A stretch of DNA of 64,000 nt from Scyliorhinus canicula (lineage: Eukaryota). Position 1 is the stretch's first letter. The number at the start of each line of letters is the position of its first letter. Below are positions 5,142 through 53,735 of the stretch, in pieces. A program made the translations under genes and the position numbers. Location: NCBI RefSeq assembly GCF_902713615.1, contig NC_052157.1, positions 46,152,553 to 46,216,552 of the forward strand, written 5' to 3'. Under the pieces are notes generated by a model. The model saw nothing but the letters and a program-made list of their open reading frames with translations, was not told where the DNA came from and ran no database searches.

Positions 5142-5524
5142 TGGAGTGTTGGCTTGTGTAGGCTTGAGAGATGAACAGACACTTCCAACACTGATGAAAG
5201 TTCAACTCAATTTTATTAACTAACTTCTAACTAACTAACACACGATGACTGTGGGTCTAATTGATGCTAACTTAAACTAGAGACCTAAGCCTTGTCCGAA
5301 CCAGTTGATTCTCTCGGCACGTGGTGTGAGTCTGTGCTGGGCTGGATGAGTTCTTGTTACACTGCGAGGCAGCATCCAGAATCAGCAGGAACCGTGGTGC
5401 CCTGCCTTTATAGTGTATGTATTCTAACTGGTGATTGGCTGCGGTGTTTGTACATGTTGATTGGTCCCTGTGTGTGTCCATCAGTGTGTGTCTGCACCAT
5501 GATATACTGGTGTATATTATGACA
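5142..5524 (-). repeat. 5' LTR of the Gypsy element
   Basis: About 95% identical (by eye) to 296-680. Confidence 0.95.
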
Positions 5525-6280
5525 GTGAGGGGAGTCGGGGAGAGGCGAGAGGAATAGGAAAGTGGTGAAGAGAATGTGGGAGAGAGGTGAGGAGAGTGGG
5601 AAAGTAGTGAGGGGAGTGGGGGATGTTGAGGGGAATAGGAAATCGGTGAGGCGAATCAGGGAGAGGCGAAGAGTGTGGGAACGTGGTGAGGGGAGTGGGT
5701 GAGAGGCGTGTGGAGTAGGACAGCGTTGAGGGGAGAAGCGAGGGAAGTAGGACAGCAATGAGGGAGCGGGGGAGAGGCATGAGAAGTAAGAAAATGTTGA
5801 GGGGTGCTGGGAAGACGTGAAGAGAGGTGGAAAGGAGTGAGAAGTATGGGTGAGAGGCATGGGGAGTAGGATAGCGATGAGGAGAGTGAGAGGTGAGGGG
5901 AGTAGGTCAGCAATGAGGAGAGAGAGTGAGAGGTGAGTGGAGTAGGTGAGCGATGAGGGGAGCAGGGAGGAGCCGTAGGGAGTAGGAAAGTGGTGATGGG
6001 AGAAGGGCGAGGTGAGGGGAGTGGTAAACTAGTGAGGGGACTGGGGAGAGGCAAGGGGAGTAATAAAGCGGCGAAGGAAGCGGGTGAGAGGCAAGGGGAG
6101 TAGGAAAGTGTTGAGGGGAGTGGGGTAGAGGCGAAGGGAATAGGAAAGTAGTGAGGGAAGAGGGGGAAAGGCGAGAGGAGTAGGGAAGCAGTGAGGGAAG
6201 TGGGAGAGAGGTGAGAGGAGTAGGGAAGAGGTGATGAGAATGGGGAGAGTCGAGGGGAATAGGAAAGTGGTGAGGGGTGA
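5525..6280. repeat. GA-rich degenerate tandem/low-complexity repeat (also 225-295; split by the Gypsy insertion)
   Basis: Recurrent GGGAGAGGCGAGGGGAGTAGGAAAGTGGTGAG-like units on both sides of the element. Confidence 0.9.
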
Positions 6281-6282
6281 AC

Positions 6283-8400
6283 ATAGCAGAGTAGGTGCGG
6301 TAGATTTAAAATGAAGTCTGCAGGCCTCAGAGGTTCAAACAAACAATGAGCTTTATTCGAAGATGTTAACACTCCAAGCTGCTCTGTCAAACTGCCTGTT
6401 TGCCCACGCAAATGGCTGGGTCCAATGGAGTCAGGTAATCAGTCTGTAAAGTGCCCCTGTTCCAGTGCAAGGCTGCTAGTGAGGAAACACTGGAAATATC
6501 ATGAAACACAACATTTACCTCCCCCTTTAAATCAAAGGTTCCTGATGATGGTCAGTGTTGGTCTAACATCGACTGCAACTGGGTGCAGTAAAACGAGAAA
6601 CAGGCTTCCGACACAGGAGATGGTCCAACACTGTTTTATTGAACCTGTTGATTGCTGTACATAATCTGCTGTGGGTTGACACTCTATTAACCTAACTGAT
6701 AACATCCTACTGGCTTGACCAGACTAGCTCTCTATCACATGGTGATGATGTTCATTGGCCTGTGCACTGCGACTATCTCCCTAGCCATGTCCTGTGAGAG
6801 AGAGAGAGCCTTAATGCCCTGTGGGCTTTATAGAGGTGGTGTCCTGTCTGGTGATTGGTTGTTCTGTGTCGTGTGTGTTCATTGGTTATCCTGTGTGTCA
6901 ATCACTGCCTGTCTGCATCTCATGATATACATGAGTGGATATTATGACACCTGACACAATGAACAATCTAACATTAACAATCAATCAACAACAATAGTCA
7001 ATACATCAGGCGCTTCAGACGTTGTCGTTCTCTGTGTGGTTGTTGGCAAACCTCAGACGTCTGCCGTTTAGTGCTTGCTGCAACCTCTGGTGTCTTTGGC
7101 TTGGTTTGGACATTGTCCGTGGTTGTCTTCACCATAGTTGACCTGGGGGTTCCGAGGGTTACTTGGTGTCTGGCTCTCAATTGCTTTCCTCAATTGGTTC
7201 GAACAGCATCAGGCTCTCCAAGCCATCTCTTGGCACAACGTGATTTGGAATCTGTCAGTTCTGAACAGGGTTCTGTATCCCGGGACACCCAGAACCACCT
7301 CTACCCCCCCCCCCCCCCCCCCCCCCCCCGCCACCCCCACCCCCTAAGGAAAGAGACTCCTGTCTAACAGCTGGAGAGCAGCCCAGACAGGGCCAATGAG
7401 AAGAATTACAGCTGTAACAGTTACCTTCCAGCTTCACTTGTCCATTCCTCGAAAGAGAGCAGCTGTGACCTGTATCTGAGTCTCACAATCCATTATCTGC
7501 AAGCCATTTATAGCTTTCTAGCAGCGGTCTCTGATTGGCAATTTCTACAAACCATCTGTAGCTTTGAGTCATTCATCTCCCTTCACGGTTTGGTGATCCC
7601 AGTGGTGAAACCCCAATGTTTGTAAACATTGACCACATCAAAGAAAGGTAAGTGCAGTGAAATCACACACTTGAGGGATTGGAATGCACTTAGTGCTGGG
7701 AATGCACTTACCTCTCCTTGTCCCGTACATTCCGTCCTCCTTCAAGTTGTGTATGAACTGTTCCGAAATGAACTACAGCTCATTATCGCACAAATTGATC
7801 AGGGTAATCGAATCTGCTGAAGATTTCACCTAAACTCTCAATTGCTGTGTCTGCTGACGTTGTCTTCATGATGACCACTTCAGGTCATTTCGAGTGAACA
7901 TTGACTTCAAATGGTCTGCCATAATCAACATATACCCATTGGCAGGCCTCTTCTGGCCATTCCTGTGGGTGTAATGGGGCTGATGGCAGCAGGTTCCGCA
8001 CTACTGTGCAAGGCGAACACAGTCCCAACTTCTCCTCAATTTTGGCATCTAGCCCCGGCCACCAAAGATAGCTTCTGGCTATCTCCTTTCTCCTTACAGT
8101 CCCACAGTGACCTTCATGTAATTAGTTTAATACACATTTTCTTAGTCGTGGTTGAGTGATGATTCTCATTCCCCAGAGAAGATAACGTGTCTGCACGGCT
8201 AATTCATGTCTTCGAGTGGAATATGGCTTTAACTCAGTTTCTGTTCCTGAAGTATTTCCTCGAAGCACTATGTCCGTGACCTCTGACAGTACTGGATCAT
8301 TTCTGATATGCTCCTTAACTTGTCCTGCGGTTACAAGAATATTATCTCCTAGCTGGAAGTAGAAAATGTTCCCACACTTTAATAACCAAGAAAGCCAGCT
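6283..8400 (-). mobile_element. Highly decayed Gypsy 3' portion (LTR remnant, PPT, pol C-terminus)
   Basis: PPT-like CCTCCCCCTTT near 6518; pol-tail-like RERQRLKRLMY* at 6998-7180; boundaries approximate. Confidence 0.55.
6546..6949 (-). mobile_element. Solo LTR of a family related to the 296-5524 element
   Basis: TG...CA ends; 5-bp TSD CCTGA (6541-6545 / 6950-6954); shares the terminal ATATTATGACA and GTGATTGG motifs. Confidence 0.85.
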
Positions 8401-11305
8401 GTAGGAAGGAAAAGATTCATTTTACTTTTAACATAAAGTTGCCCTGGGCAGTCGCAGTTCCCATTTCGAGTTCCGCGTCTACAGAGTTCTTCATACAACA
8501 GTAATGGGACGTTCCATGCCTTCATCCCATCTGTGGGCCAGCACTGCCCGGTGCCATAGGGGACGCATCGCACATCAGGAGAAGCGGTCAAGATGGTCAT
8601 AATGGTGAGGAGTTGCAAGGATGACAGAACACTTCTTCCTGTGAGGCAGTCCAAACCCACTTTTGGTTCCTCTTGAGCAGTATGTGGAGGGGTGTCAACA
8701 GTTGGCCAAGTTTGAGATAATCTTTCCGTAATAATTGACCAGTCCCAAGAATGACCAGAGTTTGGAGCATTCCTCGGAGCTGGAGCCCCCTTTATGGCCT
8801 GAACCTTCTCCTCCATGGGGTTCAGGCCATCTCTGTTAACCCTGTACTCCAAATACATTTACGCCTTTGCCCTGAACGTGCATTTGCTCTTCAGCCGAGC
8901 GCCAACTTGGAAGAACTGTCGGAGTACTTCCTCAAGGGTTTCCATGTGCCCCTTGTCGGTAATGAGCAATTCATCTAGTATGCAGCTACTTTTGGAAGCC
9001 CTTGAAGAATGCCTTTAATTACAATTCAGAAGATTTCCAGAGCTGACCAGATCCTGAATGGGAGGTGAGTGGAGTCAAATAACCCACCGTGGGTGTTTAT
9101 ATTTGCCTATTTCCTGGATGCGGAGTTCAGTTCCACCCGTAAAGAAGCATGGCTCATATCGAGATTTGTACACTGAAAATCCTCCACTCTCAGGTGGATC
9201 AGGTAATGGTCCAGGCAAGGGGCCCTGTTCACCATGAGTTTGTAATCTCTGCAGAGTCAGACAGACTTGGCTGGTTTCATAATCGGTACTATAGGTGCGG
9301 CCTATTCCTCAAACTGTATCTGGGGGATATGATTACCAGGTTCTTTAGGCGCTGAAATTCTACATCAACCTTGGCGAGTAAGGCATAGCGAACAAGGCTT
9401 GCCGTAAAATATCTGGGTTAATCCTCTGGGTCCACGTATATATGAGCTTTGACCCCTTTTATCCTGCCCAGATCCTCCTGCAATACTTCAGGATGCTTGC
9501 CGAGGACTTCATAAAAGGTTCCAGTGCCCATCCAGAAAATCTGCTGCCAATCAAACGGAGGACTCGGAAGCAGTCAGGCTCCAGTAGATTGGATCCCAGT
9601 CCCTGCACCCCAACTGAGGGTAGCCTGACCCTTTGCTGCCCGTGGGTCAGTGGGGTCATGGTGGTCCCCACGATGCTCAGTGGTTCGCCGGCATCCGTTG
9701 CCAACGTGGCCTCGGTGTCCAACAGGTTAGTGGTATGATCCGTGTATGAAGCCGAGGAAAGGTTTTTTGGCGCACGATGGAGACGACGCTCCCATGTCCA
9801 TCTCCATCACCAGAGGATGCCCATTCACTTGCAATATGACCTGGATCTGCGCCATCTTTGGGATTTGGCATCATGCAGTCTTCGTCTGGTGGGGCCACGT
9901 GCAAAGTCCTGGCTTGTGGTGACCTCATCGGCTGCGCTGGGCCGTGTACTTTCCACGAGTTCTAGCGGCACTGACCACCACGTGTTCTCTGTCCACATGT
10001 CTAGCAATATGGCTGGCCTTCCTCTTCATCCTCGGGGGAAGTATCCTGCACGTCTGCAGCTGCTCCTGACTACTGGGCCCGACTGCATAACTACGCCTTT
10101 GGTCGCCTCTTGGGAGATGAACTAGCCATTCTGGCACAGTCCCGAGATGATGCGGGAGTCCGAAACGGGGGTCGGGTCAAAATATGAATCCCATAGTTAA
10201 TGGACACTTGAAGCTGTTGCACCCCTTTCTCCACATTTTCACAGGATAGTTCCCGTTTTAAGTCTAACATGGGCTCTGCCAACAGTTTCCTTTGTGTGGC
10301 CATGTTATTTATTCCAGAAACAAACCTATCACTCAACATCTCCAAAGCGAATAGCCTGAACTCGCAGTGCTCCTCCAGCCACTTAAGGCAGGTCAAAAGG
10401 TTAGTGATTGATTCATCTGAAGACCGCACAATCACATTGAACCAACAATGTTACATTATAATATAAGGTTTTGGATCATAGTGTTCAGCCATTAGTGCAA
10501 CCAACTCATCGAACGATTTGGAGCCTGGTGCAGCTGGGTAGGTAAGGCTCTTCATAATCTCAAAGGTCAGGGCCCGACAGGTTGTCAGGAGGATCACTTT
10601 TTGATGGTCTTCCCCTAAGATGCCATTGGCCTGAAAAAAGTACCTCATACGTTCCGTATATTTGCCCCAATCCTCCAGGCCCACATCGAAGGCCTCCAGC
10701 TTACCAAGCAATAGCATATTTTTTATTTTTTTTTAATTTATTTTTTAATAAATTTAGAGTACCCAATTAATTTTTTCCAATTAAGGGGCAATTTAGCGTG
10801 GCCAATCCACCTACTCTGCACATCTTTGGGTTGTGGGGGCGAAACCCACGCAAACACGGGGAGAATGTGCAAACTCCGCACAGACAGTGACCCAGAGCCG
10901 GGATCGAACCTGGGACCTCGGCACCGTGAGGCAACAGGGCTAACCCACTGCGCCACCGTGCTGCCCCTGCAATAGCATATTTAAACTTTATATCCTCTTG
11001 TTACCGCACAGTAGTCGTCGGAGTGGTTAGGCATCTTGAAAACCGAGTCCGGAGTCTCCTTTCTCCTCATACCTTAATGACCAAGGAAACCATTTGCTTT
11101 ATTTGTGACATAAAGCTGCCCACAGCAGTAACTACAATCACAGTCCCTGTTGGGGCTGTCTGTCCCTGCCCGGGCCGGGTTTTATGCTCGGTTTAATGAA
11201 CCCCGGCTGAGTGGGTCTCTGCCCCATACTTGGGAAACTACTGCTCCACAAGCCCCAGGGGAGATCAATAATAGTTTTCCAGTGGACTTTGTGGGGGTTA
11301 TGGCC
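8400..11305 (-). mobile_element. Decayed Gypsy element: LTR (~11070-11305), gag, protease, RT/RNaseH fragments
   Basis: gag MLLLGKLEAFDVGLEDWGKYTERMRYFFQAN (10451-10717, continued 10091-10435); RT-thumb-like EEKVQAIKGAPAPRN (8379-8858). Confidence 0.8.
10722..10968 (-). mobile_element. tRNA-derived HE1/V-type SINE, short A-rich tail
   Basis: GGGCAGCACGGTGGCGCAGTGG head, GGTTCGATCC box B, GGATTGGCCACGCTAAATTGCCCC body; 14-bp TSD GCAATAGCATATTT (10708-10721 / 10969-10982). Confidence 0.92.
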
Positions 11306-14760: not shown

Positions 14761-16056
14761 CTGAGATGTAAAATCATGCCGTCTCTCTCAGAAAGATATA
14801 AAAGATTCTGTACTCTTAGATGAGCAGAAGAGTTCTCCACTCCTGACCTTATAAGGGAGAGAAGGTCATTGAGGAAGTAACTGAAGATAGCTGCACCTAG
14901 GATACTACCCTGAGGAACTCCAGAACACATGGAGAACACTCCTGCTCTTCTTCTGGAATCCTGCAATTCCCTCCCCAAATGCACTGTGGATGTACCTACA
15001 TCTTTAAAATTACAAGAAGGTGGCTCAGCGCCATCTTTACAAGGACAAATGAGTAATAAATACTGACCTTGGCAGAAACATTCACATCTAAAGGACGAAT
15101 AATAAAAATGCCACTCCATTCACTGAAGCTAGAATTGATTTTCTTTTAGCTGATAGTCCACCATATATTTCTCTGTCAGCTACAGCATGAATGGTGCACA
15201 ATGCACTTACCTGGTAGCGGTTGTAACATTGACAACTTAATAAGGGGCCTACAGCACCCATTGGCTCAACATTTTCAACACTGAGGTGGTGTGGAGAAGT
15301 GATGATAAAAGCAAATCGAAGGTTGGCTGATAGCTGGTATGTAATTTTCCAGATGTTGAACTGAGACTTCATATTCCGCTGCTCACTCCTCACTCAGAAT
15401 ACACAAGGGCAAACAAAATAAATGATACACATCCAAGATCCACCTAGTTCATTTCCTACCATTTTGGTAGTTACATGCTAGAACAATAGTGTGGTTGTTT
15501 TCTAATAATCTCTATCAATGAGTCTACCTCTGATGAATGCAGAAATTGTGATATTATATTTTAAATCTGCTGCAGTAATGTTAGTAAAAGTGTGGGTAAA
15601 GGCATATGTTTGTTGCAGTAATATTATTAAAGAAGCTAGATTTATGTAACCAGACTGTGTGTCTGCTGTAAATAAGAAGCTGTAAAAGAGAGGTCATGAT
15701 TGTTTATAACAATTTACTCGTTTACACATATAGGGCTAATGGAACATTGTTATGATTGTTGGAAATTCCCTTTGAGTAGATAATTCATAAGGTTTTGTAT
15801 TTAGTCCTAGCTCAGCAGGTCATGTGACATCTTAGTGTGATGCAGATGATGTAATTAATGGGAGGAGTCAGGTCTGTCTGTAGTTTTGCAGTTTTGCCAT
15901 AGGATTTGAGTCTGATAAGTTAGAAGTTGAACAGCAGTTTTGCCAAATTCTGCTAGATTAACCAGAAGTGTACTGGCTTTGTTCCTGAAAGGGACTCTTT
16001 CCAAGGTTTTCTACACAGCTGAGCAAATAATCTGCTTGTTAACTTTATTTACAATG

Positions 16057-16361
16057 ATAATAATCTTCATTGTCACAAGTAAGCTGACATTAACTCCGCA
16101 ATGAAGTGACTGTTAAAAGCCCCCAGTCGCCACATTCCGGCGCCTGTACAGGTACACGGAGGGAGAATTCAGAATGTCCAAATTACCTAACAGCACGTCT
16201 TTCAGGACTCGTGGAAGGAAACCGGAGCCCCCGGAGGAAACCCACGCAGACACAGGGAGAATGTGCAGACTCCGCACAGACAGTGACCCAAGTCGGTAAT
16301 CAAATCTGGGACCCTGGCGCTGTGAAGCAACAGTGCTACCCACTGTGCTACCGTGCCGCCC
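16057..16361 (-). mobile_element. HE1-head SINE with alternative (L2-like) tail
   Basis: Same tRNA head and body as 10722 but tail GGCGCCGGAATGTGGCGACT...GTGACAATGAAGATTATT. Confidence 0.85.
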
Positions 16362-20264: not shown

Positions 20265-20648
20265 TGAAGTGTTGGCTAGTGTAGACTTGAGAGATGAACA
20301 GACACTTCCAACACTGATGAAGGTTCAACTCAATTTTATTAACTACTTCTAACTAACTAACACACGATGACTGTGGGTCTAAATGATGCTAACTTAAACG
20401 AGAGACCTAAGCCTAGTCTGAACCAGTTGATTCTCTCAGCACGTGGTGTGAGTCTGTGCTGGGCTGAATAAGTTCCTGTTACACTGCGAGGCAGCACCCA
20501 GAATCAGCAGGAACCGTGGTGCCCCCTGCCTTTGTTGTGTGTGTATTCTAACTGGTGATTGGCTGCGGTGTTTGTACATGTTGATTGGTCCCTGTGTGTG
20601 TCCATCAGTGTGTCTCTGCACCATGATATACTGGTGTATATTATGACA
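20265..20648 (-). mobile_element. Solo LTR of the same family as 296-5524
   Basis: Near-identical to 296-680; 5-bp TSD TCTTC (20260-20264 / 20649-20653). Confidence 0.95.
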
Positions 20649-28722: not shown

Positions 28723-29350
28723 CAGCGCCGGCCCTAGGGTTGCTGGTGCCCCGGGCAAGCTGAACTTCGGCGCCCTTGGGGGGGGGGGGGGGGCCGAGAG
28801 GGGGGGCGGGGCCGAGAGGGGGGCGGGGCCGAGAGGGGGGGGCGAGAGGGGGGGGCCGAGAGGGGGGGGCCGAGAGGGGGGGGCGGGGCCGAGAGGGGGG
28901 GGCGGGGCCGAGAGGGGGGAAGGGCCGAGAGGGGGCGGGGGCGGGGCCGAGAGGGGGGGCCCGCGGCTGAGAGGGGGGGGGCCGAGAGGGGGGGGCGGGG
29001 CCGAGAGGGGGGGGCCGAAAGGGGGGGGGCTGGGGCCGAGAGGGGGGCGGGGCCGAGAGGGGGGTGGGGCCGAGAGGGGGGGGCCGAGAGAGGGGGCGCG
29101 GACCCGGGGGGGGGCCGAGAGGGGGGTCGGACCCGGGGGGGGGGACCCGAAGGGGGAGCGGGGGGGGCGGACCCGAGGGGGGGACGGACCCGAGGGGGGG
29201 GGGGGGCCGGCCTGGGGGAGGGCGGCCACCGCGCATGCGCTGGTTGGCACCGGCCCAACTGCGCATGCGCGGGACCCGAGTCTCTGGCGCCCCCTAGCAC
29301 ATGGCGCCCCGGGCGACTGCCCGAGTTGCCGGTGCCTTGAGCCGGCCCTG
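28723..29350. mobile_element. Non-autonomous hAT element with internal G-rich minisatellite
   Basis: TIR CAGCGCCGG / CCGGCCCTG; 8-bp TSD CCTCAGAC (28715-28722 / 29351-29358). Confidence 0.88.
28778..29215 (+). repeat. (GGGGCCGAGAGGGGG)n-type G-rich minisatellite
   Basis: Tandem CCGAGAG/GACCCG units separated by G runs. Confidence 0.9.
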
Positions 29351-34632: not shown

Positions 34633-36685
34633 AGTTATAGGCAGCACTCATCATTCCAGCAACAAAAGCATCATCAATCTGCAAAAACATTTCCTCAACG
34701 GCGTCATCAGGTGGCCCATTTGGATCAATGGCACGCACCAGGTCACACAACGTCTTCTTGCTTCAAACTGGATTGCCTTCTGGACTCATACGTCCCCCTG
34801 AGCCTGGTATACCAGGATCCAGGTATCTTAGAACAAATTCTCCTTCTTTCCAGATACAGAAAAGGAAGGAAACAGGAACAACAGTCTCCAGGCATTTGCA
34901 GCCAGCAGCAGGAGCAAGCAGCAAACACAACCTGCAGCTGTGAAGTGCTCTCGCAACGAACAAGGCTAATTCCCCATTTGAAATAACCTTCAGCTGTGAA
35001 GCTAGAGGCTGCTCACAGTCACAGGGAGTGAAATTGACTTTCAGCATCAAAGCCACAGTAGGGCTGTGTCCTGGATATGTTTGGTAGGGCAAACAAGCTG
35101 CAGCTGTGGTTTCCCCTATTATAGGCCTCCACAATATTTAAATATGGCTTGGAGGCCTTACATATGCAAAGCCACCCCCCCCCCCCCCCCCCCATCAGCC
35201 CAGGGATGACCCCAGACCTGGAACGCTTCAGCCCTCCCGACCAAGTCCAAACCCCGTAAAGGGTTCCCCTACCCCACGCCCCTCCCTTGAGCACTGGAGC
35301 AGCAGCTCTGGTCCCCTTGATCAGCATGCTGGAAAATGGAAATGGGTACTCACCTCCTCATGTCCCCTCGGAAGCCATTGTGGGAGATTCACGTTTTGGA
35401 AAAGGAGTACTGAACAACACCGACGGGACCTCTCGCTGGCAACTCGGGTAACTCCCAGGAGGCCGCTGCATTTGACTTCAATCTCGCTAATGAGGTTGAA
35501 ATGAATGCAAATGAGGGTTAATGACGCCCCCGCCATCTTCGGACAAGATCTAGAACTGTCCACGCCAGACGCAACACTAAGGTTGAATCACACCCTATAT
35601 CGCTATTCCTTCACTGTCGCTGGGTCAAAATCCTGGAACTCCCTCCCTAACAGCACTCTGGGTGCACCTACAGCTCAGGGACTGCATCCATTCAAGAAGG
35701 TAGTTCACCACCACCTTCTCTAGGGCTATTAAGAATGGGCAAAAATGCTGGTCTAGCAACAGCGATCCCCGTATCCTTTGATAAATTGGAACATAATTAA
35801 TAGTTTGGCATGATTTAAATTTTGGAACTTTGATTCAGTGAATCCATCAGTCTGATAATTCAGCCAATTTACATATTTACAAATAATCCAAGACTAAATT
35901 GATTGATAATGTTCTGGGGAAAAGAAACAGCAACTGAAAATCCAGCTGAATGAAAGACTAGGGTTACCATTGCAAGTAAGATGTATTAAGGATGCAATTT
36001 TCCAGGTTGGAATTAATGTCTAAAAACAATTACATTAAGTCAAAACTCTTTCTGTATTCTGACACAAGTCTAAAGGAATGTTTATAAACTGAATTAAAGG
36101 CAGAGAAATGTGTCTGGGCAAACCCCCAATTTATTATTTTTAGTAAGCTAGTTGTGCCTTCTCAATCTCACTCAGATAACGACAGCACTAAACCGTAGTT
36201 AATAAGTGCTCATTCTTTGCTTTCAGCTTTCAGATTCAATAGGGATGCATCATAAATGAGTGTGGGGGTTGGAGCTGTAACTGGATAACCCATTTGTAAC
36301 TTCAAACCTTGGCTGAAGGCCTCCCGAGCCAAAATATGTTTCCCCATGTGTTCTTCACGCAAATTTGCTTTCCTGATCTGAACTCAGAGAGACTGGGAAT
36401 GATCTGTGACTGGCATTGCACGCGTTCCTGGGACTTTACAATGTTCTTCATTGCAATTCAGCTAGAGAATTCTCTGTATTAAATTAGAGTGGAGAACGAG
36501 CCAACAAGCTGAAAATATATTTCATAAAAAGGTGGAATCAAATCAGCAGACTCTCATTGATTTTCTTTCCCTCCCTCAAAGACTGCCATTGTGAATGGTA
36601 ATGAGGAATGAGATGCTGCTACTTATAGAGCAACGGTGGGTGATGAAATCTTGAGACCTTTGGGCCAAGATTCTTCGACCCCACG

Positions 36686-37282
36686 CCGGGGGTGGAGGAA
36701 AGGAGAGGAAAGAGGCAAAGGGGAAAGGAGACAGAAGGAGAGGAGAGGGGAGAGAAGGGAGTGGGACGAGGAGAAGAGGAGAGAGGGGAAGAGGACGAAG
36801 TGAAAGTGAGGCAAGGGAAAGAGGGGAGGAAAAGGGAGGAGAGGGAAAGGGAGAAGAGGGAAGAAGAGTGAAGGGGAGGAGAGGAAAGGAGAGGGAGGGG
36901 AGCAGAGGGAAGAGCAGGAGAGGGAAAGGGAGGTGAGGGAAAGGGGGGAAGGGAGGAGAGGGAAGGAAGAGAGGGAATAAAAAGATGGAAAGGGGAGAGA
37001 TGGCAAGAGGAGTGGGAAAGAGATGTGAGGGAAAGAGAGGTGATGGGAGGAGAGACGGAGGGAAGGGGAGGAGAAGGGGGAAAGGGAGGAGAGGGGAGGG
37101 GAGGAGGAGGGAAGGGGAGAAGAGGGGAAGGGAGGAGAGGGAAGGGGATGAGAGAGATGGGGAGGTGAGGTAAAGGGAGGTGAGGGAAAAGGAGAAGAGG
37201 GAAATGAGGAGTGGGAAAGGGAGGAGATGGAAAGGGAAGAGAAGGAAAAGGAGGGGAAGTGAGGAAAGAAGAGGGGATGGAG
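36686..37282. repeat. Polypurine GA low-complexity tract
   Basis: Almost exclusively G/A on plus strand for ~600 bp. Confidence 0.92.
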
Positions 37283-37943
37283 ACGAGTGCTAAAAGAAAT
37301 TCAATTTTGGGATTAACATAGCAAAAAGAAAATCAGTGTGAAAAATAATTTCTTCACATTTTTGTCAAACATTTACTCAAGAAAATAGATGTTTGCTCCT
37401 AAAAGTGATAAATGACCACAGAAACACTCGTGCTTCCTCCATACTCTTCCGTGACCAGTTAGTTTGCTTCTCTCATTGACTGCAGCTACTAGGCTTGGCG
37501 CAGTGAGGTAACATTCATTACCTCACCAGCTCCTGCCTGTCACATTCAGGATACTCCTTTGTTGCGGACCCTGCTCAGAGCGTTGCTCCTCCATTTCCCT
37601 GGTGTTGAGAGGCTGTAGATAGCCGATGTTCTGAAAATTCCCCCTGTAGTTGTCAGCTGAACTGGCCAATCGACTGTCAGCACACTGAGCTCAGGATGGA
37701 GACCAAAATACTTTCATTGGACGTGCGGTGCAAAGTTAGTTTAGGAACAGATGTTAAAACTTAAGACCTGACACTCAAAATACTTCCAGCACCTTTGTGT
37801 GCATTGACTGCTGCACGCTTAGTGCAAGGAGCAATATAGTAAAAGCTGAAAATTCCAGACCTGATATTCACCCCTAAACACTCACATTAAAGTATTTTGT
37901 TTCTGTTCATTTAAGAATGACTGGATATTTACAGACCTCCACA

Positions 37944-38259
37944 ATAGAACAGTACAGCACAGAACAGGCCCTTCGGCCCTCGATGTTGTGCCGAGCAATG
38001 ATCACCCTACTTAAACCCACGTAACCTGTATACCCGTAACCCAAGAATCTCCCCATTAACCTTACACTACGGGCAATTTAGCATGGCCAATCCACCTAAC
38101 CCGCACATCTTTGGACTGTGGGAGGAAACCGGAGCACCCGGAGGAAACCCACGCACACACAGGGAGGACGTGCAGACTCCACACAGACAGTGACCCAGCC
38201 GGGAATCGAACCTGGGACCCTGGAGCTGTGAAGCATTGATGCTAACCACCATGCTACCC
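37944..38259 (-). mobile_element. HE1/V-type SINE with CR1-derived tail
   Basis: Tail CATCGAGGGCCGAAGGGCCTGTTCTGTGCTGTACTGTTCTA matches the CR1 3' end at 58420-58479. Confidence 0.9.
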
Positions 38260-38419
38260 CTTTTCTTGATTGGTCGTGACAGGTCCCAACAAACTCTGCC
38301 CCCATTTTATACTGGAGGCAAATCTCATTCGGAGTGCCAGCGTTTAAAAAATATTTGTAATGTTTTCACAGAGAAAATTGACCCAATGAATTCAACAAAA
38401 CATTTCAGAATGAAAGCCA

Positions 38420-38590
38420 AATACTGTGAAGGCTGAAGGTGCTGGATAAACTCAACAGAACTGGCAGCATCTGTGGAGAGAGAAGAAGAGTTAATTCAAG
38501 TTTGGAAGACGTGTCATATTGACCTCTAAACACTTTTCTCCGACAACAGATGCTGCCAGACCTGCTGCGTTTTTCCAGAACATTTTTCTT
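38420..38590. mobile_element. Short inverted pair of the CAGATGCTGCCAGACCTGCTG repeat (probably Penelope-related)
   Basis: CTGGCAGCATCTGTGG at ~38461 facing ACAGATGCTGCCAG at ~38546; other copies at ~18115, ~30210 and ~59675. Confidence 0.55.
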
Positions 38591-38914
38591 ATAGAATTTA
38601 CAGTGCAGAAGGAGGCCATTCGGCCCATTGAGCCTACACCGGCCCCTGAAAGAGGACCCTACCTAAGCCCACACCACCACCCTATCCCCATAACCCAGCA
38701 ACCCCACCTAACCTTTGGACACAATGGGGCATTTTAGCGTGACCAATCCACCTAACCCGCACATCGTTGTACTGTGGGAGGAAACCGGAGCACTCGGAGG
38801 AAACCCACGCACACACGGGGAGAACGTGCAGACTCCGCACAGGCAGTGACCCAAGCCGGGAATCGAACCTGGGACCCTGGAGTTGTGAAGTAACAGTGCT
38901 ACCATACTGCCCCC
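38591..38914 (-). mobile_element. HE1/V-type SINE with CR1-type tail
   Basis: Conserved body; tail GGCCTCCTTCTGCACTGTA...TTCTAT. Confidence 0.88.
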
Positions 38915-43703: not shown

Positions 43704-43891
43704 GGGGCTGTTTAGCACAGGGCTAATTCGCTGGCTTTGAAAGCAGACCAAGCAGACCAGCAGCACGGTTCGATTCCCGTAACAGCCTCCCCGAACAGGA
43801 GCCGGAATGTGGCGACTAGGGGCTTTTCACAGTAACTTCATTTGAAGCCTACTCGTGACAATAAGCGATTTACATTTCATTTCATTTTCAC
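43704..43891 (+). mobile_element. Second tRNA-derived SINE family copy
   Basis: Homologous to 41664-41842. Confidence 0.88.
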
Positions 43892-45249: not shown

Positions 45250-45711
45250 ATGCAATGATTTCTCGCAATCGCCACAAGAGTTCAGGATAATATTTTCATG
45301 CCATGTTCAGGAGAGCACCAATATACATATATCAATACACACCACAACCTCCTCTCCTTGGACACCAGACTCGTCTGCACTCCTGCAGGAACCAATCACG
45401 GATTCTTCATATCCACCCTGAGAAAAGAGGAAACATACAACAAAAACATGCAAGAAAACACTCCAATCTCAAGGACAAGTCAGGAGGAACCCAGTCCTCC
45501 CCAAAATACGTAATCTACCCAGGCCATCAAGGAGACAATCATGGATTCATAAATTCAAATACAACTCCACACCAATCAACTACCCATCACCCTGCCATGG
45601 GTCCATTCATCCTCATTGTAAATGAGATGTGGAGATGCCGGCGTTGGACTGGGGTGAGCACAGTAAGAAGTCTTACAACACCAGGTTAAAGTCCAACAGG
45701 TTTGTTTCAAA

Positions 45712-45746
45712 CACAAGCTTTCGGAGCACGGCTCCTTCTTCAGGTG
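45712..45746 (-). ncRNA. Minimal type I hammerhead ribozyme motif
   Basis: Minus strand CAC-CUGAAGA-A-GGAGC-CGU-GCUCC-GAAA-GC-UU-GUG. Confidence 0.75.
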
Positions 45747-46286
45747 AATGGAAAGGCTTGTTCCAGAAATGTTTATATAGACACAGTCAGAGATGCCCCG
45801 GAATGCGAGCACCTGCAGGCAATCAAATCATCAAAGATGCAGAGAGAGAGGTAACTCCAGGTTAAAGAGGTGTGAATTGTCCCAAGCCAGTTCAGTCGGT
45901 AGGCCTCTGCAAGTCCAGGCTTGTTGGTGGGGGCCGAATGTAATGCGACATGAATCCCAGATCCCGGTTGAGTCCGCATTCATGCGTGCGGAACTTAGCT
46001 ATAAGTTTTTGCTCAGCAATTGCGGAACTTATAGCTAAGTTCCGCACGCATGAATGCGGACTCAACCGGGATCTGGGATTCATGTCGCATTACATTCGGC
46101 CCCCACCAACAAGCCTGGACTTGCAGAGGCCTACCGACTGAACTGGCTTGGGACAATTCACACCTCTTTAACCTGGAGTTACCTCTCTCTCTGCATCTTT
46201 GATGATTTGATTGCCTGCAGGTGCTCGCATTCCGGGGCATCTCTGACTGTGTCTATATAAACATTTCTGGAACAAGCCTTTCCATT

Positions 46287-46321
46287 CACCTGAAGAAGGA
46301 GCCGTGCTCCGAAAGCTCGTG
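46287..46321 (+). ncRNA. Minimal type I hammerhead ribozyme motif
   Basis: CAC-CUGAAGA-A-GGAGC-CGU-GCUCC-GAAA-GC-UC-GUG: core boxes, 5-bp stem II, 3-bp stem I, palindromic AGCU stem III. Confidence 0.78.
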
Positions 46322-46702
46322 TTTGAAACAAACCTGTTGGACTTTAACCTGGTGTTGTAAGACTTCTTATTGTAAATGAGATAAGGGGCGCCCAAAAAGC
46401 AGTCTCCTGCCATATCCACAAAGGTTACAGCACATAATTAAAAAATAGGAGTAAAGCTGTCCACAGATCCATTTGACATGATTTTTGCTAGAACAGGATA
46501 ACAAGTCACTCTCAGCCTTATGCTCACACCTCGCAGGAGGAAAGACGACAACAAATAATCAACAACAATATCACTCGGGAGTAACATCCAGGATTATTGA
46601 CGAATTGCAGGATAATAACACCATCTATGTTGCTCGAAAAGGCCAAAGCTGTGACAGGATCATCAAACACTCCTCAGGACCTCTCAAGGAATAAAGCACT
46701 GT

Positions 46703-46909
46703 GGGCGGCACGGTAGCACAGTGGTTAGCACTTTTGCTTCAGAGCTCCAGGGACCCGGGTTTGATTCCTGGCTTGGGTCACTGTCTGTGCGGTGTCTGCC
46801 CATTCTCCTCGTGTCAGTGTAGATTTCCTCTAGGGTGCTCCATGTTCCCCCCCCCCCCCCCCCCCCCCCTCCCCCCCAAAAGATGCGATAGTTAGTCGAA
46901 TTGGACATA
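46703..46909 (+). mobile_element. HE1-head SINE (truncated, internal poly-C)
   Basis: GGGCGGCACGGTAGCACAGTGGTTAGCAC head. Confidence 0.8.
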
Positions 46910-49054: not shown

Positions 49055-49604
49055 ACAAAAATCTGCTGTTTAATATCTTACAACACCAGGTTAAAGTCCA
49101 ACATGTTTATTTGGAATAACGAGCTTTCGGAGCGTATTTAAAGAACGTGATGCGATTGCCGTTTTTTAACATTGAACTGGTTGGACCATGCCTGCGCCAA
49201 CCAGTTTTATTGGTGATCCTGCTGAAGAGGATACAGAAAGTTGGTCCTTAAATTACCCAAGAGAAGAAAAGGTGTTCCCTGGATTGTCCAGTCCTTGCAA
49301 ATAGCACCTTAGTGGCGTGATGTACCTTGAAGGTGCAGTTGGTGAGGCAGTCAGTTGGTGTGTGAGCTGCTTGGAGTGTGTTAAATAACGAGGAAAATTT
49401 AATAGACTTCAAGAGCGTTCAGGGCAGGTGGAATGGGCGGACAGGTGGCAGCTGAAGTTTAACACTTTGTGAGGTGATGCAGTTTGGTAGGAAGGATGAG
49501 ACAAGACAATACTTGTTAAATGCCAAACTTTTTTTACAGGGGTGGCATTAAGAGAGAGTTATGGGGCGGTCTTGCATTAACCTTTGAAGGTGGTGGGACA
49601 GGTT

Positions 49605-50943: not shown

Positions 50944-51255
50944 AGGATTAACTGCCCTTGGACAATGAAGACACCAGGGAGTGAAATAATGAGGAACTGT
51001 TGATGAAGAGAGGCACAGATTGTAGGTGATCCAGATGCCACATGAAGAAGATCTGTTTTGCATAATGAAAGGTTTGGAATGCACTGCCTGATGTGGTGGT
51101 GAAAACAGATTCAAAAGGAATATTGATAAATTGTTGATTAGTTTCACTGCATCAACCCTGCTATTTTTCCCTAACTGCAAGCTAACTGTTTGGGTATAGT
51201 CAGCATTTTCATCCACCGACTTGTGGCTTTGTGTGCTTTTCCAGTGTCTGCAGCA

Positions 51256-52157
51256 AGAAGTCTTACAACACCAGGTTAAAGTCCAACAGGTTTATTTAGA
51301 ATCATGAGCTTTTGGAGCATGGCTAAGTGAAGAGGTAGGTTATACAAACACAGCATATGTAGACAAAGCCAATGATACAAGGTGATACTTTGCAGATAAT
51401 TAAGTCTTTACAGGTCCAGACGGTGCAACTGGAGAGAGGGATAATCACAGGCTAAAGAGATGTGAATTGTCTCAAGCCAGGAGAGTTGGTAGGATTTTGC
51501 AAGCCCAGGCCAGATGGTGGGGGGTCCAGTCATTGTCCAGTACTTCCCCAGGGCGGAGAAACTGCAACATCTTCTTCGAAGCCTTCAACACGTCATCAAT
51601 GAAGACGAACATCTTGCCAAGGTGATCCCCACAACCCCACTACTTGCCTTCAAACAACCGTGCAACCTCAAACAGACCATTGTTTGTAGCGAACTACCCA
51701 GCCTTCAAGAGAACTGCGACCACGGCAACACACAACCCTTGTCATGACAACCTCTGCAAGACGTGCCAGATCATCGACATGGATACCATGATTGCACGTG
51801 AGAGCATTATCCACCAGGTATGCGGTACATACTCGTGCGACTCGGCCAACGTTGTCTACGTCATACACTGCAGGAAAGGATGTCCCGAAGCGTGGTACAT
51901 TGGCGAGACCATGCAGATGCTGCGACAACGGATGAGCAGACACCACACGACAATCGCCAGGCAGGAATGTTCCCTTGCAGTCGGGGAACACTTCAGCAGT
52001 CAAGGACATTCAGCCTCTGATCTTCGGATAAGCGTTCTCCAAGGCGGTCTTCAGGACGCACGACAATGCAGAATCGCTGAGCAGAAACTGATAGCCAAGT
52101 TCCGCACACATGAGTACGGCCTCAACTGGAATCTTGGATTCTTGTCTCACTACATTT
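51256..52157. mobile_element. Penelope-like element with 5' inversion; GIY-YIG endonuclease fragment
   Basis: ORF 51644-52159: CKTC...VVYVIHCRKGCPEAWYIGET...LRQR...EHF...EQKLI...GLN; 3' UTR inverted at 51256-51523. Confidence 0.9.
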
Positions 52158-52749: not shown

Positions 52750-53237
52750 GGGCGGCGTGGTGGTACAGAGGTTAGCACTGCTGCCTCACAACGCCAGGGA
52801 CCCGGATTCAATTCGGGCCTCGGGTGACTGTGTGGAGTTTGCCGTTCTACACGTGACTGCGTGGGTTTCCTCCGGGTGCTCCGGTTTCCTCTCACAGTCC
52901 AAAGATACACAGATTAGATTGATTGGCCATGCTAAATTGTCCCTTAGGGTCCAAAACGTTATGTGGAGTTACGGGGATAGAGCGGGGGCATGGGCTTAGG
53001 TGGAGTGCTCTTTAGGAGGGTCAGTGCAGACTCGATGGGCCGAGTGGCCTCCTTCTGCACTGGCTGTTTAGCACAGGGCTAAATCGCTGGCTTTGAAAGC
53101 AGACCAAGGCAGGCCAGCACCACGGTTCAATTCCTGTACCAGCCTCCCCAAACAGGCGCCGGAATGTGGCGACTAGGGGCTTTTCACAGTAATTTCATTT
53201 GAAGCCTATTTGTGACAATAATCGATTTTCATTTCAT
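52750..53237 (+). mobile_element. HE1-type SINE (52750-53061) with a second-family SINE (53062-53237) inserted in its tail
   Basis: Two consecutive tRNA heads. Confidence 0.85.
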
Positions 53238-53579
53238 AGTGATGCTATGATTCAGTGTTTTGATTTAAATTCCAGAACATTGGAACAAGTGTGTAATCAA
53301 TTCTGAATAAACCTACCTTACAGGAGAAGCGGCCTGCAGGTTTTTGGCAGGAGCAGTGTCCAGGGGCCTGTCGGGAAGGTAAGTTTAACTTTAAAAACTT
53401 ACCTTTAGAGCTGCAGGAAGTTGGCCGTGGGGATTTCTGGAAAGATTTGTTAGTACCTGTATATAAGTTGGGCGGTTGATAAACCTGAGACACAACACTT
53501 GTAGTGTCCCCCACCCTTCCACCTCCTCTAACCTAAGGAGTTGAGTGAAAATCAGGTAAGCTCTTCCTTTCTTTTTCTT

Positions 53580-53707
53580 CTGATTCACCTGAGGAAGGAG
53601 CTGCGCTCCGAAAGCTCGTGTTTGAAACAAACCTGTTGGATTTTAACCGGGTGTTGTAAGACTTCTTACTGTGCTCACCCCAGTCCAACGCCGGCATCTC
53701 CACATCA
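53580..53707 (+). mobile_element. Very short Penelope 3'-end insertion
   Basis: Matches the reverse complement of 45629-45748; 12-bp TSD TTTCTTTTTCTT (53568-53579 / 53708-53719). Confidence 0.88.
53586..53620 (+). ncRNA. Minimal type I hammerhead ribozyme motif
   Basis: CAC-CUGAGGA-A-GGAGC-UGC-GCUCC-GAAA-GC-UC-GUG; differs from 46287 only at N7 and the stem II loop. Confidence 0.78.
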
Positions 53708-53735
53708 TTTCTTTTTCTTGTTTTATCTAGAAGGG

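Follow-up and report, generated by a model that had tools for sequence, protein, structure and literature searches.

Minimal hammerhead motifs in the pseudo-LTR of a young Penelope-like retrotransposon of the catshark Scyliorhinus canicula, and their probable place at the 5' end of a mostly uncut template RNA

Hammerhead motifs in the pseudo-LTRs of Penelope-like elements (PLEs) have been described from metazoan genomes, and an unpaired extra base and a palindrome are listed among their general features in the available text of that work (PMC4209133). For the Poseidon PLE of the lizard Anolis carolinensis (PAc), the accessible part of the report describes a protein, predicted to act as a dimer, that nicks and extends both target strands, a reverse transcriptase (RT) that starts at two sites defining the tail, and a hammerhead whose cutting depends on the protein and which is dispensable for insertion in vitro (PMC11167929). 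As far as the available text of these two sources goes, cutting by the PLE ribozyme is weak, with no in vivo evidence for it and no in vitro need (PMC4209133, PMC11167929). Inverted copies, one-sided tails and target duplications are likewise published features of PLEs; the parts available from these sources explain the inversions by self-priming or nuclease resolution, and a putative TATA/initiator is noted there in an Adineta pLTR (PMC3846280, PMC8557442, PMC2377424). The related non-LTR retrozymes also carry type I hammerheads, which in vertebrates are more effective in dimeric form, and are connected with PLE pseudo-LTRs; in the available descriptions they form head-to-tail arrays of non-coding units of 170–400 nt with canonical ribozymes (PMC7229834, bioRxiv 10.64898/2026.07.22.740005).

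The window analysed here is a 64,000-nt stretch of the S. canicula genome, in which an earlier note had pointed out three hammerhead motifs thought to work only as dimers. All three 35-nt motifs lie where the note had placed them and contain all of their parts (Table 1). A structure-aware scan, in which a match had to combine the core with a paired stem II, a short gap in stem III, UH and a stem I of 3 bp, gave exactly 3 matches in the window compared with a mean of 0.02 and a maximum of 1 in 100 shuffles, while the loose pattern CUGANGA...GAAA on its own is not significant in the window (11 seen, 6.75 expected). With Rfam the window gave no hammerhead match at E<=5, and its tRNA-like, snoRNA and miRNA matches all remained below the gathering scores. 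The Rfam models describe the canonical hammerhead with a closed helix III, and in the window motifs stem III would require a 2-nt loop. All three copies have the core C3-U4-G5-A6-N7-G8-A9, G12-A13-A14-A15.1 and U16.1-H17. G10.1-C11.1 opens stem II, the pair probabilities of which are 0.94–0.99, and stem I consists of 3 bp with a pairing probability of 0.35–0.41 in the inverted-insertion arm and 0.06–0.07 in the 53586 copy. The segment 15.2–16.2 is palindromic (AGCU) with no loop 3 in the window family. The note was right that stem III cannot close within one molecule, and the palindrome covaries in a second family described below; the extra A that it had reported after A9 is likewise genuine, being present and unpaired between positions 9 and 10.1 in 72 of 73 sampled copies covering the core.

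The motifs belong to the minimal type I hammerheads, and the element whose pseudo-LTR carries them is a young Penelope-like retrotransposon. Such a motif is ordinary for PLEs, and the extra A, the palindrome and the idea of a dimer have already been published. The window motifs share with the metazoan PLE hammerheads, as described in the available text of PMC4209133, the type I core, the unpaired base 9/10.1, the G10.1-C11.1 pair, the palindromic 15.2–16.2 without helix III, the position in a pseudo-LTR, and the occurrence as thousands of dispersed single copies and as pairs 100–700 bp apart on opposite strands. They differ from those described there in that their stems are shorter (5 bp in stem II, 3 bp in stem I) and their copies highly uniform; compared with the same text, the position directly after a TATA/initiator and the extra G discussed below are features noted for the window family.

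The window contains two intact insertions, plus two broken relatives, rather than three independent hammerhead copies, because the 45712 and 46287 copies are the arms of a single inverted insertion and are consequently not independent. The arms (348 nt, 99% complementary) open with the last codons of the PLE ORF, and a read-through transcript of the insertion is predicted to fold as a 351-pair hairpin. With the two hammerheads on opposite strands, any one transcript contains at most one of them in sense orientation, and pairing of the two inside a single RNA is ruled out. Their sole internal difference, C or U at position 17, concerns a CpG site, and post-insertion deamination explains it better than selection. 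In the older head-to-head insertion, the pseudo-LTR arm has a hammerhead with its 5' half deleted, and the endonuclease fragment is 76% identical in protein.

Table 1. Positions of hammerhead motifs and associated element features in the window
Feature	Position	Strand	Remark
Minimal type I hammerhead, short tail-less arm	46287..46321	+	predicted cut between 46318 and 46319
Minimal type I hammerhead, long tailed arm	45712..45746	-	predicted cut 45715/45714; U17 likely CpG decay
Minimal type I hammerhead, older haplotype, in solo 124-nt insertion	53586..53620	+	predicted cut after 53617
Long arm: end of GIY-YIG coding region, 3' UTR, pseudo-LTR with hammerhead, tail	45626..46021	-	
Short arm: same sequence head-to-head, ending ~34 nt before tail end	46026..46369	+	
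Filler at junction of the two arms	46022..46025	.	
Tail of ~35 nt, on one arm only	45626..45660	-	
Left target-site duplication, 14 nt including overlap with arm end	45615..45628	+	
Right target-site duplication	46369..46382	+	
Last 42 codons of PLE ORF (end of endonuclease domain)	45895..46020	-	100% identical to longer genomic copy
TATA-box match, 30 nt before putative start; mirror 45772-45779 (-)	46254..46261	+	function putative
Initiator-like A, putative capped start, 35 nt before cut; mirror 45749 (-)	46284	+	putative
Solo start-to-tail insertion	53583..53706	+	begins at putative start A; preceded by non-element G (53582)
12-nt target duplication of solo insertion	53568-53579 and 53708-53719		
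Older head-to-head insertion of window PLE family	51251..52156		endonuclease fragment 51526-52156 (+), pseudo-LTR arm 51523-51251 (-)
Stub beginning in 3' strand of stem II, no intact hammerhead	49076..49133	-	

In longer genomic copies (L003/L053, L027 and L054) visual inspection revealed a YIDD-bearing RT together with a C-X4-C-X2-C linker and a nuclease resembling GIY-YIG, and at five loci (L167, L169, L171, L174 and L177) direct pseudo-LTRs bearing the hammerhead flank the ORF ~3 kb apart. These features bear out the Penelope-like host proposed in the note, and the host, judged from motifs read by eye, is an endonuclease-bearing PLE. With a 398-aa fragment as query, a Pfam search gave no match and a PDB sequence search only one at E=0.46 to endonuclease II. 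A linker of the CX2-5CxxC type is common to Neptune, Nematis and Naiad in the available part of PMC8557442, and the linker found here conforms to it, which makes the host Neptune-like by this criterion. In full-length copies the ATG lies directly 3' of the tail, that is, of the last base of the repeat. The tail, 30–40 nt long, is optional, with 56 long (tailed) and 44 short 3' ends in a sample of 100 copies. In PAc, according to the accessible text, the ribozyme contains the ORF start and the ORF in turn includes the tail (PMC11167929). In the window PLE, by contrast, the tail precedes the ATG, which is ~90 nt downstream of the cut, and the linker is of the Neptune/Nematis type. Identity with non-LTR retrozymes was considered and set aside: in the window the copies occur singly or inverted, and they retain pieces of the ORF.

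The searched genome (4.2 Gb, 646 contigs) contains 30,918 exact matches to the 35-nt motif (control 0) and 44,611 matches to a looser core pattern (control 59). The earlier description of the family as recently active holds as regards its youth, with copies of the window subfamily on other chromosomes 99–100% identical, and falls short as regards present-day activity, with no intact ORF among the 15 ORF-start copies examined. One near-full-length copy (L053; contig C17, ~20.71 Mb) lies in a 42-nt tandem satellite, its ORF open for 679 codons and then frameshifted. There are also many composite insertions that contain only the first 94–125 nt of the ORF followed by another pseudo-LTR (L061, L063, L064, L067, L069, L071, L073, L074, L077 and L082), and a hot spot of template jumping, or an RNA boundary shielded by protein, may lie at this point.

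The reading that we favour, and consider probable as a whole, is that the hammerhead is located at the 5' end of a capped transcript, that it is predicted to cut only weakly, as a dimer assisted by protein, and that most copies are made from uncut RNA. The junction analysis assumes that copying of cut RNA would give copies whose 5' ends lie at the predicted cut. The sample comprises 100 copies, the first among 41,678 hits to an anchor placed downstream of the motif. It is drawn from the initial 8.5 Mb of a single contig, and 5 of its members belong to one repeated segment and account for 5 of the 10 junctions at -36. Its 5' junctions are found at -40..-19 (58 copies), further upstream (33) and between -12 and +12 (9), with 0/100 within -7..+5 of the predicted cut. 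Genome-wide, the 34,409 anchored copies include 111 with a junction at the cut, a few of these being small indels, and 134 junctions lie at a control site 5–6 nt downstream. After correction for detection the rates are 1.0% at the cut, 1.0% at the control site (the denominator of which is estimated from the 100-copy sample) and about 18% at an A 35 nt before the cut. Among the copies that reach the ORF start, 3/38 begin at 0/+1 of the cut (L054, L069, L178), more than the 1% found genome-wide though in small numbers, and cut RNA may feed ORF-bearing copies. The idea prompted by L054 that full-length copies start at the cut was dropped, since junctions are missing close to the cut in the sample and at control level genome-wide, and leave only this small residual hint. 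No C17 copy with a downstream insertion, a linkage that would indicate cutting and rejoining, occurred among 149, a count that is insensitive if both repeats of the source copy are alike. Judging from these junctions, most inserted copies were likely reverse-transcribed from uncut RNA. Because cleavage followed by decay or circularisation would leave no junction, the absent footprint does not refute cleavage as such. The proposal of the note that dimeric self-cleavage processes the RNA of the family is, however, not supported by the junctions; in addition, the close copies in the window face opposite ways, and structure prediction prefers other folds to the active double hammerhead.

The predicted energies are -17.3 kcal/mol for the active double hammerhead, -19.0 for two monomers and -27.1 for an inactive stem II duplex, from nearest-neighbour parameters that ignore core contacts. 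On this model dimer cleavage likely needs a helper, which agrees with the low in vitro activity reported in the available text of PMC4209133. The same energies bear on a different model, proposed in that text (PMC4209133), in which dimeric cleavage at both pseudo-LTRs is required, the unit-length RNA passes through circles to full-length or tandem copies, and the capped stubs are by-products. Conservation of the core and the palindrome, the existence of direct pseudo-LTRs ~3 kb apart, and the three ORF-start copies that begin at the cut are in its favour, and some copies reaching upstream of the start carry ORF-start bases past the tail, as a tandem or circular template would produce. We nevertheless regard this model as unlikely: tandem transcripts account for the latter copies, junctions are not in excess at the cut, the active dimer is predicted to be less stable than either the two monomers or the inactive duplex, and in the accessible part of the lizard PLE study the element could do without its ribozyme in vitro, with no read ending at the cut (PMC11167929).

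The proposed capped start rests on the A located 35 nt upstream of the cut. Of 32,889 copies extending to this A, about 18% have a non-element base in front of it. A TATA match lies 30 nt upstream of the A, which itself forms part of an initiator-like sequence; the consensus TATA-to-start spacing provides the yardstick for this distance. The A is preceded by G in 3,639 of the 32,889 copies, or ~60% of those starting there. In hand tallies (the first 30 script-checked) the extra G is present at 67/100 listed start-A junctions versus 9/100 at the cut, and it is found in 9/13 non-inverted start junctions; the solo insertion of the window shows the same combination of start A and preceding G. Some of these G's could be templated by the partner arm. 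In L1 insertions an extra G marks capped 5' ends, according to the available text of PMC11702581. From the pile-up at the start A, the TATA/initiator and the extra G together we infer a capped start at this position. The hammerhead would then likely take up the first 40 nt of a capped RNA, and the RT would usually have continued past the uncut site. The promoter proposed for the window PLE differs from that of D. virilis, which lacks a TATA box in the available sources (PMC3846280, PMC8557442, PMC2377424). Literature searches, judged from their listings, turned up neither a cap-like start nor a two-template pattern for PLEs, and earlier work, including a 2017 RNA Biology paper on dimeric PLE hammerheads, may already describe the motif or the start site.

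The pile-up of 5' ends could alternatively reflect stalling of the RT or a fold-back hot spot caused by the hammerhead structure, with no transcription start involved. Many of the junctions are inverted, some are centred on stem II, and they are spread over ~20 nt, as this would predict. However, the RT meets the structure from its 3' side and yet the ends lie beyond it, the TATA spacing is 30 nt, and the extra G is specific to the position (67 versus 9 of 100) and also present in non-inverted copies, so that we consider this explanation quite improbable.

The capped-transcript reading includes selection on the ribozyme fold. Among the sampled copies 73/100 cover the core, and in agreement with the note, which had placed the differences only on tolerant positions, the shared variants within the 35 nt fall only on N7, two bases of loop II and H17 (naive P ~1e-4 for such a placement). 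The shared states at position 17 are C and A, and G17 occurs in 1/149 copies. No lineage-level core variant occurs among the 73 copies; core changes are rare and mostly CpG decay. A pattern excluding the stem of the window family detected a second, older family (966 matches, control 133) with the stem II GAGUC/GACUC, the extra A retained and its own 4-bp stem I complement. In this family 15.2/16.2 is CG or one of its CpG-decay products, CA or TG, in 82/90 listed non-focal matches (hand tally, 10 focal rows aside), and the palindrome is switched from AGCU to ACGU. Because lineage variants spare the core and because stem II and the palindrome covary in the second family, the hammerhead fold is likely under selection. 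The switch is as the dimer design would predict, and the dimer idea of the note fits this covariation. RT-like similarity, which ties the second family only weakly to PLEs, was found in 1/15 loci. Many of its copies (loci L229-L243) appear to begin at the 5' edge of the motif, and L240 and L241 have a TATA-like stretch ~25–31 nt upstream. It is very improbable that the motif no longer cuts and is kept as a promoter-proximal, protein-binding or RNA-pairing element, an idea suggested by its location directly after the TATA/initiator, by the 3-bp stem I of low pairing probability and by the missing footprint at the cut, since the tolerated changes are those that a hammerhead allows (N7, loop II, H17 not G), the second family keeps the core with different stems, and related PLE motifs cut weakly in the available sources (PMC4209133, PMC11167929).

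The inverted arrangement seen in the window recurs in other copies. Among the fetched loci there are 119 candidate head-to-head pairs, 62 of which have a target duplication of at least 9 nt; the other 57 were excluded from the pair counts. The duplications are 12–13 nt long in 35/62 pairs, and every one of the 62 pairs consists of one tailed and one tail-less arm. Such pairs resemble the inverted-pLTR insertions of endonuclease-bearing PLEs, with a head-to-head 5'-truncated copy, a tail at one end and a target duplication, as described in the available sources. The arms carry different linked two-base loop haplotypes in 7/62 pairs (L022, L031, L039, L061, L158, L164 and L241), the background difference being ~3% per site, and in several mixed pairs both arms start near the putative start. 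L130, L133, L138 and L148 were not counted as mixed, since their loop differs through a stem II fold-back common to both arms. The two arms share their haplotype in 41/62 pairs, which is above random pairing. Fold-back of a single template thus appears to explain part of the inverted pairs, and the junctions centred on stem II read as clear fold-backs. Since one molecule has only one capped end and the arms differ in haplotype, the mixed pairs likely used two RNAs per insertion. Unlike the self-priming and nuclease-resolution accounts, the strict asymmetry of long and short arms together with the mixed haplotypes points to two primed cDNAs in at least some insertions. By analogy, the inverted-pair data fit the lizard PLE picture of two-strand nicking and two-site priming; as in the accessible account of PAc, two end points define a tail of 30–40 nt, both target strands appear to be used, and uncut RNA would be the main template.

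Inverted junctions centred exactly on the hammerhead stem II were observed at L130, L133, L138, L148 and L156, and the stem II hairpin can act as a self-priming or annealing site in cDNA. L041 and L042 (contig C1, ~1.72 and 2.84 Mb) lie in opposite orientation and agree almost completely in their 2.75-kb inverted structure and in the sequence of the junction; the tailed and tail-less ends are swapped between the arms, and the whole inverted unit may itself have been copied.

Taken as a mechanism, the capped-transcript reading would run as follows. Transcription would be driven by a TATA/initiator promoter in the pseudo-LTR and would begin 35 nt upstream of the cut and ~125 nt upstream of the ORF start. 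The RT-endonuclease would nick both target strands ~12–13 nt apart, and cDNA synthesis would start at two internal sites corresponding to the two ends of the tail. As is evident from the DNA, copies extend past the predicted cut and often end at the putative start with the extra G. Two cDNAs, at least sometimes from different RNA molecules, would join head-to-head to give an inverted pair such as that in the window. The ribozyme may be kept by selection for an occasional cut that yields, for example, circular or decapped RNA, for which a second hammerhead copy would be needed to supply stem III.

A more speculative extension, which we think possible but doubtful, is that the insertion complex holds two capped, uncut RNAs with the hammerheads in their first 40 nt, that each nick receives one cDNA, and that the stem III palindrome pairs the two 5' ends in trans, so that the ribozyme fires only when two transcripts share one protein dimer. 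If so, cleavage would remove the cap and thereby circularise or silence transcripts, and inverted insertions of mixed haplotype would be a record of the two-RNA complex. Irrespective of this extension, the tens of thousands of young copies constitute a large natural record of PLE insertion. To the published picture they add a mapped likely start, probable uncut templates and likely mixed-template insertions, and the copy record defines constructs for studying trans-dimer, protein-assisted cleavage and the origin of PLE inverted repeats.

Several other repeats were observed in the window. A repeat of ~380 nt, possibly LTR-like, has three copies that are 71–96% identical (296-676, 5142-5522 and 20265-20644). 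A tRNA-like SINE-type repeat is present in many copies, including 10737-10945, 16049-16361, 38064-38901, 46703-46835 and 52750-53237, and Rfam tRNA matches below threshold fall in SINE-type repeats at 43706 and 25588. Purine- or G-rich tandem arrays with units of ~15–40 nt and strong strand skew are located at 28752-29220, 36685-37289 and 5538-6299.
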